Shown: positions 22,857 to 28,608 of the stretch, one piece after another | Layout: each line of letters begins with the position of its first letter | How positions within the stretch are numbered: the stretch's first letter is position 1 | The notes under the pieces: model-generated | What the model was told of the DNA's origin: nothing | Databases searched by the model: none | The model's input: the letters and a program-made list of their open reading frames with translations, nothing else | Position numbers and translations under genes: made by a program | Source: Eubacteriales bacterium | Lineage (GTDB): Bacteria; Bacillota; Clostridia; Oscillospirales; CAG-272 | NCBI GenBank assembly: GCA_045547015.1 | Contig: JAZQDY010000066.1 | Coordinates: forward strand, 1 to 33,811 | Direction: 5' to 3' | Length of the DNA: 33,811 nucleotides

Positions 22857-23933
22857 TTACTTTAAAATATTAAGGAAACGCGCCACTTCTTTGCCGATCT
22901 TTTCCGCCATCCGGAGAAAACCAATGTCCGTTGGATGGACGCCGTCTACCAGTTCGCAGCCAGTATAGCAGTCGGAAAAGTACTCTTTTCCATCAATAAA
23001 AACAACGTTCCGGTCCCCTGCCGCCTTGGCGCGCTCTACCGTATCTTTCACGATCCGGCGGCGTTCTTCATTGTCAGCGGATCCGGTGTAATCAGGCCGG
23101 GAAGCGCAGATAATCGGCAGGTCCGGCTGTTTATCCCGAATGATGCGGAACATTCTTTCGTGCGTCTTTCGGAGAAACTCCGGGTCCGGCGCGTTATGAT
23201 CGTAATCGTATACGAACACGCTCATGTGGAGGGCAGCGATATATTCGGCGACTGCATCCTCTGCCTTTGCGTTTCCGTTGAAGCCAAGATTCAAGAAATC
23301 ACAATCCAGCATTCGGGAAATAATTGCCTCATACGTATTTCCGGGGCGGGACGCACAGCCGCCGTGGGTAATGGAAGAACCGTAATACACCACCGGCTTT
23401 TCATACGTATATGGGCGCGGCGGCTCCACCACCGCATCCGCGTCCAAATACAGATACAGCCTGGACACTTCGCTGAACAAGGGGAAATTCAAAGTCAGCT
23501 CCCGCATCTTTTTTTCCGGAAACGTATACTCGGACTCAAAACCGTTTTCAATAGTGTACGGCGGGATAAACGTATGGGCATACATTTCCCTGCCGTTTTC
23601 CCTGTTATAGAGGTCAAATCCTGCGCATCCGGTAAGCGCATCGTGTGAGTATTTCCATATACACGGCATCTCCGCGTGAATGGCAATATAAGAAGAATCG
23701 GTTCTGAATCTGAGCCGTGCACCGGTTGTGTTGGCGTGCAGCCAGTGCACGTTTCTGCTGACAGCCAGTGCAGCATCCTCAGGCATACGGCGGAATTTGT
23801 CATCCGGCGCATCCGTTGGCGGAATAATACCGTGCAGTTGAAAAGGGGCTTTCCGCACGTCATACACGGTCACGTTCTCCCGGCTGATCTTACACTCCAC
23901 TTTCAGATTCGGATCAATTTGAGAAATGTCCAT
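22857..23933 (-). CDS. SGNH/GDSL hydrolase with GxDLY-type N-terminal domain (copy 1), no signal peptide
   Basis: GFDLY motif in the N-domain. SGNH blocks are VVYYGSSITHGG (nucleophile Ser), LGFNGNAKAE (block III Asn) and VDGVHPTD (Asp/His). About 50% identical by eye to the 27532-28578 product. Confidence 0.85.
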   Translation of the reverse strand: MDISQIDPNLKVECKISRENVTVYDVRKAPFQLHGIIPPTDAPDDKFRRMPEDAALAVSRNVHWLHANTTGARLRFRTDSSYIAIHAEMPCIWKYSHDALTGCAGFDLYNRENGREMYAHTFIPPYTIENGFESEYTFPEKKMRELTLNFPLFSEVSRLYLYLDADAVVEPPRPYTYEKPVVYYGSSITHGGCASRPGNTYEAIISRMLDCDFLNLGFNGNAKAEDAVAEYIAALHMSVFVYDYDHNAPDPEFLRKTHERMFRIIRDKQPDLPIICASRPDYTGSADNEERRRIVKDTVERAKAAGDRNVVFIDGKEYFSDCYTGCELVDGVHPTDIGFLRMAEKIGKEVARFLNILK

Positions 23934-23946
23934 GGATCATTCTCCC

Positions 23947-24822
23947 TCAAAGAATCTTCTCACCGTCAAAGAGAATCACACCGGTACCGGAACCCATTTT
24001 TCCGCCGGCTTTCAGATATTCTATGTAGTTTCGTCTGAGGCGGGTATCCGTGGGTGCCTTATCCAGCGTTTCGGGTCCCTCGTATACCATATTGAAGATC
24101 CGCCAGAAATCACTGCCGGTCTCCCTCTCCTTGGTGCTGACAATATCAAAAAGAGCAGCGAATTTCCGCGTATTGGATCCTTCCGGATACATCACGATGG
24201 TAGGCGGATACAGAAGCCAGGAATAGCACACGATCTTCAGAATACCGTCTTTCAAACTGTCCTTATTGAACTCATACAGTTTTTTGAAAGAATCCATGAC
24301 AGATTCCGGCGTCAAAGGTCCGCTGGACGGAATATGGCAGCTGAAACAGGCATCGCCATTTTTCAGAATTCCTTTATAGTCTTCGCCGCCCCACGTATGC
24401 TTATCGAACTGCAGACGACCGAAAGGCATACGCTCGCAGGTATAGAACATTTTAAACCAGTCCACGAACGTGCCCCAAATGCCGTATACGTCGTGGCACT
24501 CGATCAGCTTATATTTCAGATCTGTCACAGACTCCCAATACATATGCTCCGGGAGGTTTTTCTGTTTATAGATATAGTACAGCGATTTTGTACACAGAAT
24601 CCAGAAAACCATATCGGAAGTGTATCGGTGCACGCCGGATTCCTTCGAAACGTTTTCAAGAATCGGAACAAATGAGTTGTCCGTTCCGCAGTACATAGCG
24701 TCCATGGCTTCGTAAATGCCGGTCAGTGCTTTTGGGGACGACAGGATCTTCCGGTAGGCCGCCTCCAAACAATCCGCAGCTTCTTCGGGAAATCCTGTTT
24801 TTTCACAAAAATCTCTTACCAT
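23947..24822 (-). CDS. acyltransferase-like protein (GNAT-like C-terminal domain / DUF5596-type N-domain), copy 1
   Basis: 291 aa from the ATG at 24820-24822, with AGGAGG 6 nt upstream; the track's TTG at 24840 is unlikely. It is about 70% identical by eye to the 26610-27488 product. The family assignment rests on my recollection of the 'acyltransferase domain-containing protein' family (CHIPSSGPLTPESV..., ...GTGVILFDG) and needs an HMM check. Confidence 0.7.
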   Translation of the reverse strand: MVRDFCEKTGFPEEAADCLEAAYRKILSSPKALTGIYEAMDAMYCGTDNSFVPILENVSKESGVHRYTSDMVFWILCTKSLYYIYKQKNLPEHMYWESVTDLKYKLIECHDVYGIWGTFVDWFKMFYTCERMPFGRLQFDKHTWGGEDYKGILKNGDACFSCHIPSSGPLTPESVMDSFKKLYEFNKDSLKDGILKIVCYSWLLYPPTIVMYPEGSNTRKFAALFDIVSTKERETGSDFWRIFNMVYEGPETLDKAPTDTRLRRNYIEYLKAGGKMGSGTGVILFDGEKIL

Positions 24823-24878
24823 ACTGAACCTCCTGTTCAATCCGCGTTACTTGGCAGAATTGAAAATTCATACTTTTA

Positions 24879-24906
24879 ATTATATCACTATTTTTCATGG
24901 TGTCAA
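24879..24906 (-). promoter_or_regulatory. near-consensus sigma-A promoter for the AT1-SGNH1-phosphoesterase operon
   Basis: Minus strand reads TTGACA (24901-24906), a 16-nt spacer, then TGaTATAAT, an extended -10 (TATAAT at 24879-24884), about 57 nt upstream of the ATG at 24822. Confidence 0.65.
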
Positions 24907-24917
24907 TAAATTTCAGC

Positions 24918-24938
24918 AAAAAAAGCACAGCCGCAGAG
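24918..24938 (-). terminator. 3' arm plus U-tract of a terminator that has been split by the cassette
   Basis: AAAAAAA-GCACAGCC (24918-24932) is the exact complement of GGCTGTGC-TTTT at 26578-26589. The two arms are 1.6 kb apart and are rejoined if the cassette and one GCCGCAGAG copy are removed. Confidence 0.7.
24930..24938. repeat. target-site duplication, left copy (GCCGCAGAG)
   Basis: An identical 9-mer in direct orientation lies at 26570-26578. Both copies directly abut the outer ends of the inverted repeats. Confidence 0.8.
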
Positions 24939-24975
24939 CAATGTCATTTAGATAAGGCTGTAGAAGTTTAGATAA
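24939..24975. repeat. left terminal inverted repeat
   Basis: CAATGTCATTTAGATAAGGCTGTAGAAGTTTAGATAA. It contains two TTTAGATAA sub-repeats spaced 20 nt apart. Confidence 0.85.
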
Positions 24976-25037
24976 GGGTAAATCCATAAACATATCCCAT
25001 TTCTGCTAAGAATACCGTTTAGTAAAGTATTTCAATT

Positions 25038-25095
25038 ATAAAAAAGACGGGAATACCCATATCACCACAGTAGTTGCGGTGGCATGGATGTTCCC
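25038..25095 (-). terminator. intrinsic terminator inside the cassette, about 190 nt past the regulator's stop codon
   Basis: Minus strand shows a long imperfect stem, GGGAAcAtCCATgcCACCgC-aacta-cTGtGGTGatATGGgTaTTCCC, followed by GTCTTTTTT. Confidence 0.6.
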
Positions 25096-25282
25096 TCTTT
25101 GTTTCAGTGGTTATTTATTTTTCTGAAAACATTACTTTTTAGAGCGTGATCTTGTAAGAAATGATGCCCTTACATTTTTTCTCATTTTGAAAATATAAAA
25201 GTTTTATCATTACGTATATTACTTTAATTATAAAATTGCGAACGATGTGTTTAGATATGGCAATACCGCTGTGGTATTACGA

Positions 25283-26347
25283 TTATTCAAATAAAGCTTT
25301 AAAATCTTCGTAATCACGGATGAAATCAAATACGTCCCTCTTGCTCATTTCCTTGATATTATCGAGATGCGTTCCTTCTGAATGATACCACTCTCTTGAA
25401 TCGATGGTAATGTGATCAAACAACGGCGCTGTATACCTATACTCACCGAGTGCGATTGAATCAATCAAATCGTACTCTTTCACATGATATATTGCTTCTT
25501 TCAAGAATTTTATTGCTGATTCAGCGTTTCCTTCGGATGCCGCAATTTCAGCTTTTCTGAATTTGATGTGACTCATCAAGTGGTGATATTCGCAGTAATT
25601 CCCGTCTGGAATCATTGCTTTAATGATACTTTCTGCGGCTGTACAGGTATCCTTGTTATCTCCAATATTGCTCCAGAGCAGCACATGGATAAGAGCTCCG
25701 AAATGTTTTTCAAGATACTTCTGTTTATGACAGATTTGTTCATCACCATCAAGACAACTAACAAGCAATCCTTCTTTCTCTGTCGGATCTATTTTTGTTT
25801 CGGGGAATAAATCCAAATAACGTCTTGCTTCCTTTTTGTCTCCTTTTCCACAGAAACAGCCAACAATGTACCAAATAGCCCGCGCTTTTATTTCGTCATC
25901 ATCTGTATTTCCGATTACCCTATCAAATATCTTTATGACTCGTTCTCGTACCTCTTCAAACTCTTCTCCATTAGGTAATGTCGCTATAGCTAAGTTCCAA
26001 GTATCTATAGCATAACAAGTCAGCCACTTCATATCAGACGGGTATTCATGGGTGGCAGTTTCTGCGATCAGTAAACATGCCTCCGGGTAGTTTGTTTTTG
26101 CTGCTTCATCGTACAATCTTTCAAGTTCTTCCAGTCGGGTGTCAGATTCTTTTGCTCCCAGCAGTTCATCCGTAGATACGCCTAATGCTTTTGAAAGCGG
26201 AACAATCAGCGCAAGATCAGGCATTGTCAGACCACACTCCCATTTGCTGACCGACTTATAGGTAACACCGAGATATTCTGCCAGTTTCTCCTGTGTGAGA
26301 TCATTCTTCTTCCGCAGTTCCTTGATTCTTAGTCCAATATTCTTCAT
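25283..26347 (-). CDS. XRE-family HTH regulator with an about 290-aa helical, TPR-like C-terminal domain (RNPP-like architecture)
   Basis: The N-terminus IKELRKKNDLTQEKLAEYLGVTYKSVSKWECGLTMPDLALIVPLSKALGVSTDELLG is a canonical HTH_3/XRE domain. The remainder is helix-rich with repeated hydrophobic/acidic periodicity. SD AAGGAGAA is present. Codon usage is AT-rich, unlike the neighbours. Confidence 0.88.
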   Translation of the reverse strand: MKNIGLRIKELRKKNDLTQEKLAEYLGVTYKSVSKWECGLTMPDLALIVPLSKALGVSTDELLGAKESDTRLEELERLYDEAAKTNYPEACLLIAETATHEYPSDMKWLTCYAIDTWNLAIATLPNGEEFEEVRERVIKIFDRVIGNTDDDEIKARAIWYIVGCFCGKGDKKEARRYLDLFPETKIDPTEKEGLLVSCLDGDEQICHKQKYLEKHFGALIHVLLWSNIGDNKDTCTAAESIIKAMIPDGNYCEYHHLMSHIKFRKAEIAASEGNAESAIKFLKEAIYHVKEYDLIDSIALGEYRYTAPLFDHITIDSREWYHSEGTHLDNIKEMSKRDVFDFIRDYEDFKALFE

Positions 26348-26394
26348 ATGTTTTCTCCTTTTTCAAAAGTAAGCCGTGCACCGCTTCTGTATAT

Positions 26395-26423
26395 AGTATA
26401 ACATAATAACAATACACTCACAA
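26395..26423 (-). promoter_or_regulatory. candidate promoter of the cassette regulator
   Basis: Minus strand reads TTGTGA (26418-26423), a 17-nt spacer, then TATACT (26395-26400), 48 nt upstream of the ATG. Confidence 0.4.
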
Positions 26424-26440
26424 CACCATCTTCGCCGAGT

Positions 26441-26465
26441 CGAACTCTCGCAATGGGAGAGTTCG
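26441..26465. repeat. 9-bp perfect inverted repeat (CGAACTCTC-N7-GAGAGTTCG) upstream of the regulator promoter
   Basis: Read directly from the sequence. It could be an operator or an RNA hairpin; the function is not determinable here. Confidence 0.5.
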
Positions 26466-26532
26466 CTTTCTTGCCGTATAAAAAAGACCCCTCGATTGCT
26501 TTTAACAACAGAGGAATCTTTCGCGTTAGGTT

Positions 26533-26569
26533 TTATCTAAACTTTTACCGCTTTATCTAAATGACATTG
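26533..26569. repeat. right terminal inverted repeat
   Basis: The reverse complement reads CAATGTCATTTAGATAAAGCGGTAAAAGTTTAGATAA, matching the left TIR at 34/37 with the outer 17 nt identical. Confidence 0.85.
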
Positions 26570-26578
26570 GCCGCAGAG
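26570..26578. repeat. target-site duplication, right copy (GCCGCAGAG)
   Basis: Direct repeat of 24930-24938. Confidence 0.8.
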
Positions 26579-26590
26579 GCTGTGCTTTTG
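26570..26590 (-). terminator. 5' arm of the split terminator downstream of AT2
   Basis: GGCTGTGCTTTT lies 19 nt after the AT2 stop, counted on the plus strand. See 24918-24938 for the partner arm. Confidence 0.7.
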
Positions 26591-26609
26591 CCATTTTCAG
26601 TCCACATGG

Positions 26610-27488
26610 TCAGAGTATTTTTTCTCCGTCAAACAGGATTACCCCCGTACCGCTGCCCATCTTATTACCCGCCTTCAGATACGCCGCATAGTTCCGTCTC
26701 AGGCGTGTATCCAAAGGCACACGGTCCAGCGTTTCCGGCCCTTCGTACATCGTATTAAAGATCCGCCAAAAATCCACGGAGGTGGAGCGCTCTTGCATAC
26801 CGATTATATCGAAAAGCTCATAAAATTTCCGGGTGTTGGAACCCTCCGGGTATAACTCAATGGTGGGAGGATACAAAAGTCCGGTAGTAGTCACGATTTT
26901 CAGAATACCGTCCGCAAGGCTGTCCTTATGGTATTCGTACAGTTTTCCGATAGAATCCATGACAGATTCCGGTGTCAGCGGTCCGCTGGACGGAATATGG
27001 CAGTAAAAGTACGTATCGCCTTTTTTCAGAATGCCGCGATAATCTTCCCCGTCCCACGCACGCAGATCGTACTGCAGCCGACCGAACGTCATACGATCAC
27101 AGGTAAAAAAGCGGTCGAACCACTGGGTAAAAACACCCCAGATCCCGTACACGGAATAACACTCCATCAGCTTGTATTTGAGATCCATCATGGCATCCCA
27201 GTACAGATGCTCCGGGATATTCTTCTGCTTATAAATATAGTACAGCGGTTTGGCACAGTGAATCCAGAACACCAGATCGGAAGTGTATCTGTGCACGCCG
27301 GATTTTTTTGATACGGTCTCAAGGCTCTCCGCAACGGACGGGCGTGGTTGAGCGGAATACACCTTATCCATCGCTTCATAGATCTCGTGCACAGCCGAAG
27401 GGGACTGCAGAATCTTTCTGTACGCCGTCTCAAGGCACACTACGGCCTCTTCGGGGAAGCCGAGTTTTTCACAAAAATCCTTTACCAT
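26610..27488 (-). CDS. acyltransferase-like protein (same family as 23947-24822), copy 2
   Basis: 292 aa, MVKDFCEKLGFPEEA...KMGSGTGVILFDGEKIL. GGAG lies 7 nt upstream of the ATG. It is a paralogue of copy 1. Confidence 0.7.
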   Translation of the reverse strand: MVKDFCEKLGFPEEAVVCLETAYRKILQSPSAVHEIYEAMDKVYSAQPRPSVAESLETVSKKSGVHRYTSDLVFWIHCAKPLYYIYKQKNIPEHLYWDAMMDLKYKLMECYSVYGIWGVFTQWFDRFFTCDRMTFGRLQYDLRAWDGEDYRGILKKGDTYFYCHIPSSGPLTPESVMDSIGKLYEYHKDSLADGILKIVTTTGLLYPPTIELYPEGSNTRKFYELFDIIGMQERSTSVDFWRIFNTMYEGPETLDRVPLDTRLRRNYAAYLKAGNKMGSGTGVILFDGEKIL

Positions 27489-27531
27489 ACGTCAACTCCA
27501 ATTGAAAACGCGATGGTTTGCGTCGCTTATT

Positions 27532-28578
27532 TTAATCCAGAATATCCTTCATGACATTCTCCAGAGCTGCCGCCATGGAGGCAAATCCGTAATCGGTAGG
27601 ATGACAGCCGTCCACCGTACCCTCATTGCCGCACAATGCCATAAGTGCCGGTCCATCCAGGAAGTATACGTTTTTATCTCCGGCGGCAAGTGCGTTCTTA
27701 TAGGTCGTTTCCACACAGCGGCGGCGGTCCACTTCCGGTTCAAGCAAATAAATCTTCGGTCGGCTCATCATAATGACCGGTATGTCCGGATGCTTGGCGC
27801 GCACGGCTTTAAACAGCTTTTCATGGGTCGCCCAAAGATGCTCGGGCGTGGGTGCGTTGTGATCGTAATCCAGCACAAACATGGACATATCAAGACCGCT
27901 GAGATACTCAATCATGGTATCTTCTGCTCTGGCATTTCCGGAAAAGCCAAGATTTATATAATCCATATTGAAACGTCTCTCCAGAACGCTCTGATAACTT
28001 CTGCCGGGACGGGAGGCGCAGCCGCCCTGGGTGATGGAAGAACCATAGTATACCACCGGTTTTTCGTTTCTGTACGGTTTGGCAGCCTGTACCACGGCAT
28101 CCTCCTGGAGACCGATATATACCGCGTTCACATCACTGTAAAGGGGGAGATTAATAGTAATTTCGCGAAGCTGCTTTGAGGGCAGCGGAACTTCCCCGTC
28201 AAATCCTTCAGTGATAGAAAAAGGAGGAATAAATGTCTTCACAAACACGCCGTCCGCATACAGATCAAATCCGATGGAGCCGGTGAGTGCAAAATGCGAC
28301 ATTTTACCCAGTGCTTCTTTCATTTCTGCGTGAATAACCACATAAGGGCTGTCCGTCACAAAGCGGATACGGCCGCCGGCCGTATTGGCGTGAAGCCGCC
28401 AGACGCCGTCGCTGACGGATTTGGCAACGGATTCCGGCATACGGCGGTATTTACCGTCCTCCCAGTACACGCCGTGAATGGAAAACGGTGCTTTCTGCGG
28501 ATCGTAGAACCGCATATCCTCCCGCTGAACTGTAGTTGGCACGGCAAAGTTCTTGTCAATGCTTGCGATGTCAGACAT
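27532..28578 (-). CDS. SGNH/GDSL hydrolase with GxDLY-type N-terminal domain (copy 2), no signal peptide
   Basis: GFDLY motif, VVYYGSSITQGG, LGFSGNARAE, VDGCHPTD. I use the ATG at 28576-28578 (GGAGG 8 nt upstream) rather than the track start at 28605. Confidence 0.85.
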   Translation of the reverse strand: MSDIASIDKNFAVPTTVQREDMRFYDPQKAPFSIHGVYWEDGKYRRMPESVAKSVSDGVWRLHANTAGGRIRFVTDSPYVVIHAEMKEALGKMSHFALTGSIGFDLYADGVFVKTFIPPFSITEGFDGEVPLPSKQLREITINLPLYSDVNAVYIGLQEDAVVQAAKPYRNEKPVVYYGSSITQGGCASRPGRSYQSVLERRFNMDYINLGFSGNARAEDTMIEYLSGLDMSMFVLDYDHNAPTPEHLWATHEKLFKAVRAKHPDIPVIMMSRPKIYLLEPEVDRRRCVETTYKNALAAGDKNVYFLDGPALMALCGNEGTVDGCHPTDYGFASMAAALENVMKDILD

Positions 28579-28608
28579 TTTTTCTTCCTCCGATATAAAT
28601 ATCATTGT

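Follow-up and report, generated by a model that had tools for sequence, protein, structure and literature searches.

The window analyzed in this study comprises positions 1–33,811 of contig JAZQDY010000066.1 (assembly GCA_045547015.1) of a Eubacteriales bacterium from the CAG-272 lineage. The window represents core chromosome, with genes of RelA/SpoT, RecJ, and SpoIVB, and it contains, between two acyltransferase-like genes, a 1,631-bp element at positions 24939–26569, which is referred to below as the cassette. The inverted-repeat search showed that the cassette is bounded by two 37-nt terminal inverted repeats (TIRs), at 24939–24975 (plus strand) and 26533–26569 (minus strand), which are complementary at 34 of 37 positions (92%). 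Their outer 17-mer, CAATGTCATTTAGATAA, has just these two occurrences in the window, one inverted relative to the other, while 0.11 were expected by chance. A perfect 9-bp target-site duplication, GCCGCAGAG, abuts both ends in direct orientation, with the left copy at 24930–24938 (repeat family D5) and the right copy, found in the repeat search, at 26570–26578. The repeats, the identical outer 17 nt and the duplication had all been proposed in a preliminary description of this DNA, made from the sequence alone, and each of them was recovered here. The same description estimated the G+C content as 28–35% inside the cassette and 55% in the flank; the direction of this difference was correct, but its size was overstated, as the values are 38% for the cassette (31–45% across 300-nt windows) and 46–52% for the flanks. 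The only real open reading frame (ORF) of the cassette, located at 25283–26347 on the minus strand, encodes a 354-aa protein with an HTH_3 domain (E = 4e-15).

All neighboring genes are encoded on the minus strand, and hence the upstream side of the cassette is its right-hand side. The upstream gene (26610–27488) encodes a NAT_N/GNAT_C acyltransferase-like protein, and the gene on the other side (23947–24840) encodes its paralog. When the cassette and one copy of the 9-mer were removed, the sequence AAAAAAAGCACAGCC-GCAGA-GGCTGTGCTTTT was rebuilt, which folds at −21.4 kcal/mol and has the duplication on its loop. This hairpin reads as a minus-strand terminator, with the T-run on the minus strand. 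It is placed about 20 nt past the stop codon of the upstream gene, and 23 nt upstream of a promoter with a 12/12 match to TTGACA-16-TATAAT (24906–24879), which serves the paralog. Both halves of the split host terminator are still present on the minus strand: the upstream half at 26570–26593 consists of the A-tract, the 5′ stem arm GCACAGCC and then the loop copy, while the downstream half at 24918–24938 consists of the 3′ stem arm GGCTGTGC, the T-tract and one copy of the duplication. The cut was thus centered on the loop of the upstream acyltransferase-like gene's intrinsic terminator. The preliminary description had placed the insertion at the apex of a terminator hairpin, past the stop of the upstream gene and ahead of the next promoter, and this holds once the genes are read on the minus strand.

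The empty site was also found in related genomes. Because look-ups of the exact proteins of the cargo and of both flanking genes returned no record, the genomic contexts were reached via homologs. The flanking protein has its closest homolog (P0001, 89% identity) on syntenic contigs, of which L086 and L087 are from JGI metagenomes and L142 is from an NCBI metagenome-assembled genome (MAG; GCA_045544955.1). In these three contigs the acyltransferase paralogs are only 147 bp apart, and an intact hairpin, AAAAGCACAGTC-TTTCGG-GACTGTGCTTTTTTT, is located at the orthologous spot, so the uninterrupted site anticipated by the preliminary description does exist. The wider intergenic sequence, TGAAAATGGCAAAAGCACAGTC-TTTCGG-GACTGTGCTTTTTTTATGAAATCATTGACA, is collinear with both halves in the window. 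One stem pair differs between the empty site and the window by a compensatory change (T·A versus C·G), which argues for selection on the hairpin in its role as a terminator. The acyltransferase-like genes belong to a tandem duplicate of a two-gene unit, which consists of a GxDLY/SGNH esterase gene and a NAT_N/GNAT_C acyltransferase-like gene (22857–24840 and 26610–28605). The acyltransferase paralogs of the two units are 72% identical, the cassette is located exactly between the units, and the tandem duplication is also kept in L086, L087, and L142.

To search for further copies, the structure of the ends was used. Each end contains the box TTTAGATAA twice with a 20-nt spacing: box 1 at 24947–24955 and box 2 at 24967–24975 in the end downstream from the cargo gene, and box 2 at 26533–26541 and box 1 at 26553–26561 in the end upstream of it. 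The scan for the two-box end pattern required two boxes on at least one end, and it was later relaxed to the 17-mer. The two-box scan detected the same cassette on the IMG/VR contig L001. In addition, ends occurred singly or in pairs in 22 species-level genomes and on two metagenome contigs, nearly all of which are MAGs of Clostridia from ruminant or animal gut. Another copy of the same cassette, on contig L127 from a different metagenome, was reached via a cargo homolog. This copy is 93.6% identical over 1,631/1,642 bp. Its insertion site is unrelated to that in the window and is again a terminator loop, where the 10-bp duplication TCTCCCCGAG falls on the hairpin AAAAAGATCACTC-TCCCC-GAGTGGTCTTTTT. 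The copy on L001 has its left flank in common with L127 and a different right flank without a duplication, which suggests that it is a chimera or a rearrangement. The further copies that the preliminary description had hoped for are thus present.

The copies and empty sites bear on the possibility that the regulator gene is native to this locus, and that the repeats are a fossil or a coincidence without recent mobility. The single copy in the 33.8-kb window would be consistent with this explanation. On the other hand, the empty site in relatives, the perfect duplication, the 93.6%-identical copy elsewhere, and the G+C content of the cassette below that of its flanks all argue against it. The empty sites together with the second insertion site refute it, and its probability is negligible.

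The data showed that the cassette belongs to a diverse family. Seven further complete elements with the same ends are 1.63–1.80 kb long, and about 20 related cassettes with these ends were found in other genomes, none of which carries a transposase. Their cargo is of four types, which are XRE-HTH + TPR regulators, several of them mutually distant, AraC-family regulators (L022, L007), sigma-70 r2/r4 proteins (L008, and C-terminal fragments in L014 and L015), and a tandem GNAT acetyltransferase (L021). When the whole cassette was compared by blastn to a plasmid collection, only one 33-nt chance match was found, and there was no match in a phage collection. A scan of viral sequences with the 17-mer gave 61 matches, most of them by chance, and the only real ones were L001, the IS on contig L028 described below, and two partial IS copies. 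Some other forms were also seen. A 161-bp form, which resembles a MITE, a transposable element of the miniature inverted-repeat kind (L011:7517-7677), has two ends with boxes and almost nothing between them, and A/T arms on both flanks without a clean duplication. A single full two-box match near a contig start in a Desulfurella sp. MAG (Campylobacterota; L016:59-95), far outside Clostridia, could be a real element, contamination, or chance. An identical 13-mer with the box (TTTTTAGATATGC) is located inside the ORFs of L022 (element position 1009) and L023 (element position 867), whose cargoes, AraC and XRE-TPR, are unrelated; the number of internal boxes expected by chance is about 0.12–0.14 per element.

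The ends of the cassette were next compared with those of autonomous ISs. The terminal 18–21 nt of the cassette, including the terminal 18 nt of the left end (CAATGTCATTTAGATAAG), are identical to the ends of the IS on contig L028 and of the P0201-type ISs. The L028 IS is 1,679 bp long, has the ends CAATGTCATTTAGATAAGGAC, and is flanked by a 10-bp duplication, GGATAACACC. Its 467-aa ORF contains the sequence YAKRWGIETSFRELK, which corresponds to YxxRxxxExxxxxxK, the YREK motif (Y(2)R(3)E(6)K), and the protein matches the NCBIfam model transpos_IS4_1 (NF033592) with 179 bits, against a cutoff of 115, and Pfam DDE_Tnp_1 with E = 7e-25. This transposase has 6,714 relatives at E ≤ 1e-20, mostly on contigs of about 1.7 kb, as repeats collapse in this way in assembly. 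Three further IS groups (P0172, P0180, and P0201) encode transposases 65–71% identical to that of L028, and in 30 insertion contexts of these groups all ends were (C/T)AATGTCATTTAGATAAG and the elements were 1,658–1,680 bp long. The clade consists of ISs of 1.66–1.68 kb with a DDE transposase of 435–440 aa, and it is abundant in gut Clostridia. Many copies of these ISs and of the cassettes do not have a duplication (L096, L097, L101, L103–L107, L116, L117, and L119, as well as L001), and their flanks belong to different sites that are intact elsewhere; this points either to contigs wrongly joined at repeats during assembly or to recombination among the copies.

The IS ends start with (C/T)AATG, in agreement with the short TIRs with a 5′-NA start that characterize the IS4 family, as do a transposase encoded by a single ORF and a duplication close to one helical turn in length. 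The end consensus of the IS4 subgroup is -AATR--------WTW----, with a relaxed first base, while that of IS231 is CAT-------AA--TAA--- (PMC2266710). The ends (C/T)AATGTCATTTAGATAAG have AATG at positions 2–5, ATA at positions 14–16, and C or T as the first base, and they fit the IS4-subgroup consensus and not that of IS231. The direct repeats in the IS4 subgroup are 10–13 bp long, while they are 8–10 bp long in IS4Sa (PMC2266710). The duplications of the ISs studied here were 10 bp long in 10 of 11 unique intact sites and 9 bp long in the remaining one, while those of the cassettes were either 9 bp (three exact and three decayed) or 10 bp long (three), lengths that overlap with those of IS4Sa. 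Judging from their sequence, the ends of the cassette can be assigned to the IS4 family, and they fit the IS4 subgroup. In the preliminary description the 9-bp duplication was regarded as typical of several DDE families and the ends were left unassigned; with four IS groups in which the same ends flank an IS4-family DDE transposase, this assignment could now be made.

The structure of the cargo protein was also predicted. The AlphaFold model, which was based on a 44-sequence alignment, is all-helical with a pLDDT of 93, and it consists of an N-terminal XRE-type HTH followed by a TPR-like helical-repeat array. The best PDB matches in a Foldseek search were ComR, PlcR, PrgX, and Rgg2, with E-values from 2.6e-5 upward and TM-scores of only 0.2–0.35. 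The model suggests that the cargo shares the architecture of RNPP receptors (ComR, PlcR, PrgX, and Rgg), which have the same arrangement of an XRE HTH and a TPR-like array, while membership in this group is not proven, given the low TM-scores and the fact that no cognate peptide gene was found in the cassette. When a gene of a small signaling peptide was sought in the cassette, the frames of all candidates in the window were broken by indels in relatives. Homologs of the cargo with 69%, 56%, and 40% identity are located in ordinary chromosomal contexts without cassette ends, which suggests that the regulator is a captured host-type gene. The 56%-identical homolog has genes of TnpV and DUF6809 as its neighbors on at least 23 contigs (L129–L138), where it may be part of another mobile element.

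Since most cassettes of the family encode an XRE-HTH protein of similar size, it could be considered that this protein is itself a novel recombinase and that the element is autonomous. This explanation is, however, highly improbable. The same ends also surround AraC, sigma-70-like, or GNAT genes, and the cargo homologs mentioned above have no such ends. Additionally, the model is close to ComR, PlcR, PrgX, and Rgg2 without any nuclease-like fold, while a bona fide IS4 DDE transposase is encoded between identical ends. The other cargoes, the end-less homologs and the fold effectively refute a role of the cargo as a recombinase or transposase. These results also uphold the earlier claims that the only sizeable ORF is an XRE/TPR regulator and that no transposase is present inside the cassette.

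To analyze the target choice, 19 unique empty sites, of eight cassettes and 11 ISs, were rebuilt and compared with 3,000 random 44-mers from the same loci. The mean minimum free energy in the 44-nt window was −16.0 kcal/mol for the insertion sites and −6.6 kcal/mol (sd 4.1) for the controls (p = 3e-8). A centered hairpin, defined as located within 2 nt of the center, with at least five contiguous pairs and an energy of −9 kcal/mol or lower, was present in 13 of 19 insertion sites and in 3.2% of the controls (p = 8e-16). The suggestion of a preference for hairpin loops, made earlier from a single site, is thus statistically strong across the family. When 70 unique flanks were read outward, T was found at 61–83% in positions 16–20 on both sides. 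The consensus of the empty site is an A-tract, 5 nt, the 10-bp duplication, 5 nt, and a T-tract, or AAAAA-N20-TTTTT, while the stem and loop of the target sites have no primary-sequence consensus. These data showed statistically that the clade picks symmetric targets, in which an A-tract and a T-tract are each separated by about 5 nt from a 9–10-bp duplication. The A/T-armed target sites in these genomes are mostly bidirectional-looking terminator hairpins. A review of the IS4 family likewise describes the target arms of the IS4 subgroup as highly specific (PMC2266710).

It is possible, though rather doubtful, that the transposase reads the DNA structure, such as an extruded cruciform or a single-stranded hairpin, and not the A/T arms. 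This alternative concerns only the choice of the target. It is consistent with the enrichment of hairpins beyond the arms, as 7 of 11 arm-bearing insertion sites had centered hairpins, compared to 12% of 127 background arm sites (Fisher p = 2e-4), with the five hairpin insertion sites that lack one strict arm, and with the missing sequence consensus of stem and loop. On the other hand, arm-bearing sites without a hairpin were also hit (L009, L021, and L025, as well as the K-12 copy of Escherichia coli IS4 and L123), and the staggered symmetric duplication is as expected for attack on double-stranded B-DNA by IS4-family enzymes (PMC2266710). Additionally, part of the hairpin excess among the arm sites could result from selection against intragenic insertions, which would favor terminators over coding AAA-N20-TTT sites. 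Promoter-proximal targeting of the TnGBS/ISLre2 type, which also gives a 9-bp duplication, was considered for this locus, where the duplication is 23 nt upstream of the −35 hexamer, and it was rejected, as the common feature across the sites is a hairpin with A/T arms and not a promoter. At one C-rich non-hairpin site, GCCCCCCTTCAATCCCCC, beside MobC/relaxase genes, the IS was found in both orientations with the same 10-bp duplication (L092/L093 versus L094/L098), which could be explained either by two independent hits at one position or by an inversion.

A preference of IS4 for AAA-N20-TTT was reportedly described in the 1980s, and literature searches for this consensus or for terminator-targeting IS4 elements found no open paper. 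For this reason the targeting by E. coli IS4 was examined directly at five distinct sites, which were the K-12 copy and four further independent insertions. In the K-12 copy, a duplication of 12 bp is located within cgAAA-N20-TTTgt. At three of the five sites, after glgP, after bamE, and on an O157 plasmid (L122, L124, and L125), IS4 is located in the loops of A/T-flanked terminator hairpins, while the fourth further insertion is intragenic, in AAAAA-N19-TTT. Complete E. coli genomes contain IS4 in 2,687 of 5,426 cases, with up to 32 places per genome. The ends of E. coli IS4 and of the clade are alike (TAATGCCGATCAGTTAAGG versus CAATGTCATTTAGATAAGG, 13/19), with a relaxed first base in both, and in both the duplication is centered between an A-tract and a T-tract about 17–20 nt apart. 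The differences are in the transposase, as that of the clade is only 21% identical to E. coli InsG (E = 6e-13), and in the duplications, which are 11–12 bp long in E. coli IS4. The similar behavior of E. coli IS4 suggests that terminator-loop targeting is a trait of the IS4 subgroup and not new to the cassette.

Insertion into terminator hairpins has been observed for another family as well, which raises the possibility that the cassette was moved by a different hairpin-targeting enzyme, of the IS1182/IS1272, IS200/IS605, or IS110 type. The staphylococcal IS1272/TnSha1 (IS1182 family) uses terminator hairpins as insertion sites, shows little specificity for primary sequence, and has the passenger gene sh-fabI (PMC4923244), which resembles the cassette in both the target and the presence of a passenger. 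However, its transposase is of another family and is retained in TnSha1, and the insertion cuts the stem and deletes part of the hairpin without any duplication (PMC4923244), while the duplications observed here are 9–10 bp long and centered on the loop. The TIRs, these duplications, and the IS4 transposase encoded between identical ends make an enzyme of any of these types a most unlikely candidate. IS200/IS605 and IS110 elements are not known to have TIRs or duplications. Elements such as IS1397 and ISKpn1 (IS3 family) and those of the IS110 type insert into repetitive extragenic palindromes (REP, or palindromic units, PU), which are extragenic, hairpin-forming safe havens. They differ from the clade studied here in that their targets are specific REPs rather than generic terminators, and in their chemistry and ends.

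The closest parallel is provided by the mobile insertion cassettes (MICs) of the MIC231/IS231 type in the Bacillus cereus group (Chen et al. 1999; De Palmenaer et al. 2004; cited in PMC2266710), which also have IS4-family ends and passenger genes, and no transposase. They further resemble the cassettes described here in their size close to that of the parent IS, in having target duplications and a target-specific parent IS, and in the proposed mechanism of trans-mobilization by the transposase of the cognate IS. On the other hand, the cassettes studied here fit the IS4-subgroup and not the IS231 consensus, their hosts are gut Clostridia, and their cargo consists mostly of transcription factors rather than resistance or metabolic genes. 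In addition, the cassette from the window has two boxes per end and a vestigial inner end, and the duplications are 9–10 bp, compared to 10–12 bp. According to a review from 2008, cassette modularity had not been seen in IS4 subgroups other than IS231 (PMC2266710).

The analysis of the noncoding parts of the cassette showed that it has an ordered internal anatomy. Read along the minus strand, it consists of end boxes 1 and 2, an inward-facing terminator, a promoter-like site, the cargo gene, the inner end, an A/T-rich conserved stretch, a long terminator, and boxes 2 and 1. The inward-facing terminator hairpin is located just inside the cargo-upstream end (26482–26522, minus strand; −20.4 kcal/mol, z = −2.4). 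It is also present in other XRE cassettes, and each of the four autonomous IS groups (L088, which corresponds to L028, L091, L102, and L111) has it in the left end, where a terminator-like hairpin with a T-run is located about 25–70 nt inside the end, upstream of the transposase. The putative promoter of the cargo, recognized as a consensus match, is TTGTGA-17-TATACT with a TG (26395–26423, minus strand). The long terminator hairpin followed by a T-run, 3′ of the cargo (25043–25100, minus strand; −30.3 kcal/mol, z = −5.2), is kept across the cassettes. It is a part of a conserved noncoding module at 24976–25282 (minus strand), which together with the adjacent repeat comprises 344 nt (24939–25282). 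Across the cassettes this module is better conserved than the cargo gene, with 99.4% identity to L127 and 78.6% nucleotide identity to L005, compared to 92% for the cargo in the former case and 37% for the cargo proteins in the latter. A comparison with relatives did not reveal a conserved small ORF in the module, and an Rfam search of positions 24500–27000 gave no family even at E ≤ 1. The module is headed by a vestigial inner end, CGATGTG-TTTAGATATGGC (25243–25261, plus strand; repeat family D2), which agrees with the terminal repeat in 16 of 20 positions, is oriented like the left outer end, and is placed 26 nt past the stop codon of the cargo. Its core, ATATCTAAAC, is invariant across five cassettes. 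A hypothetical short form (25243–26569) would likewise be bounded by inverted ends.

Hence, we consider with a probability of about 0.9 that the segment 24939–26569 is a MIC, a non-autonomous derivative of the IS4-family clade of gut Clostridia. It has the terminal repeats of a known IS, a passenger gene instead of a transposase, a duplication like that of the parent, and a second insertion site on L127. These features, together with the empty sites and the diversity of transposase-free cargo, support the MIC-type interpretation that had been proposed from the sequence. The cassette has the IS ends (C/T)AATGTCATTTAGATAAG with the regulator gene in place of the transposase, and its cargo is self-contained, with its own predicted promoter and terminators on both sides. 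The 435–440-aa DDE transposase from a resident IS of the clade would bind the ends in trans, excise the cassette, and join it to a 9-bp staggered cut, the repair of which would give the GCCGCAGAG duplication. Such an insertion would exchange the split host terminator for the element's own inward-facing terminator. In the window, host transcription enters via the end that bears this read-in terminator, and the presence of an inward terminator inside the entry end of both the cassette and the ISs suggests that the insertion could be nearly neutral for the neighboring genes. This replacement of the terminator fits the tolerance of the elements in intergenic safe havens.

Several observations weigh against this explanation. 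The trans-mobilization and the cut-and-paste chemistry are adopted from what is known about other members of the IS4 family, such as IS231A, Tn5, and Tn10. Neither the window nor 236 kb of sequence from cassette-bearing contigs contained a transposase of the clade. The sampled IS ends have one TTTAGATAA box each (10/10), while the cassette lineage has two per end, and the second box was present in 8 of 9 unselected partner ends of the cassettes; it may be that the precise cognate IS is a relative outside the sample, or that the cassettes gained the second box as an innovation. The IS copies are mostly from pig and human gut assemblies, while the cassettes are mostly from ruminant-gut MAGs. Finally, the cassette duplications are 9 or 10 bp long, compared to 10 bp in nearly all IS sites, which is within the variation of the IS4 family but could reflect a slightly different enzyme. 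A more far-reaching proposal, which we regard as speculative and improbable, is that the cassette lineage is more than a deletion derivative. With extra transposase-binding boxes, two in each end and an inner end-like site, and with its constrained 344-nt module, it would out-compete the parent IS for a cis-preferring transposase, which would read hairpin or cruciform geometry and not sequence, and the cassettes would serve as a shuttle that drops self-insulated transcription-factor genes (XRE-TPR, AraC, and sigma) into the terminator loops of gut Clostridia.

These results do not overturn the current understanding of transposition. The cassette is a neat new case of an element type that is already known, with its hairpin-loop targeting inherited from an IS4-subgroup parent. 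The numbers obtained here show that an abundant clade of the IS4 subgroup lands precisely on terminator loops, and the tolerance of such insertions could be explained by the safe-haven sites and by the replacement terminators that the elements would bring with them. For genome annotation, split terminators around AT-rich inserts can serve as a flag of these elements, and the data are also of relevance for thinking about terminator-directed insertion tools. The cassettes, which occur in uncultured gut Clostridia, represent a diversified MIC family that does not belong to the Bacillus IS231 group, and with their cargo of mostly transcription factors they provide a route to the horizontal rewiring of regulation.

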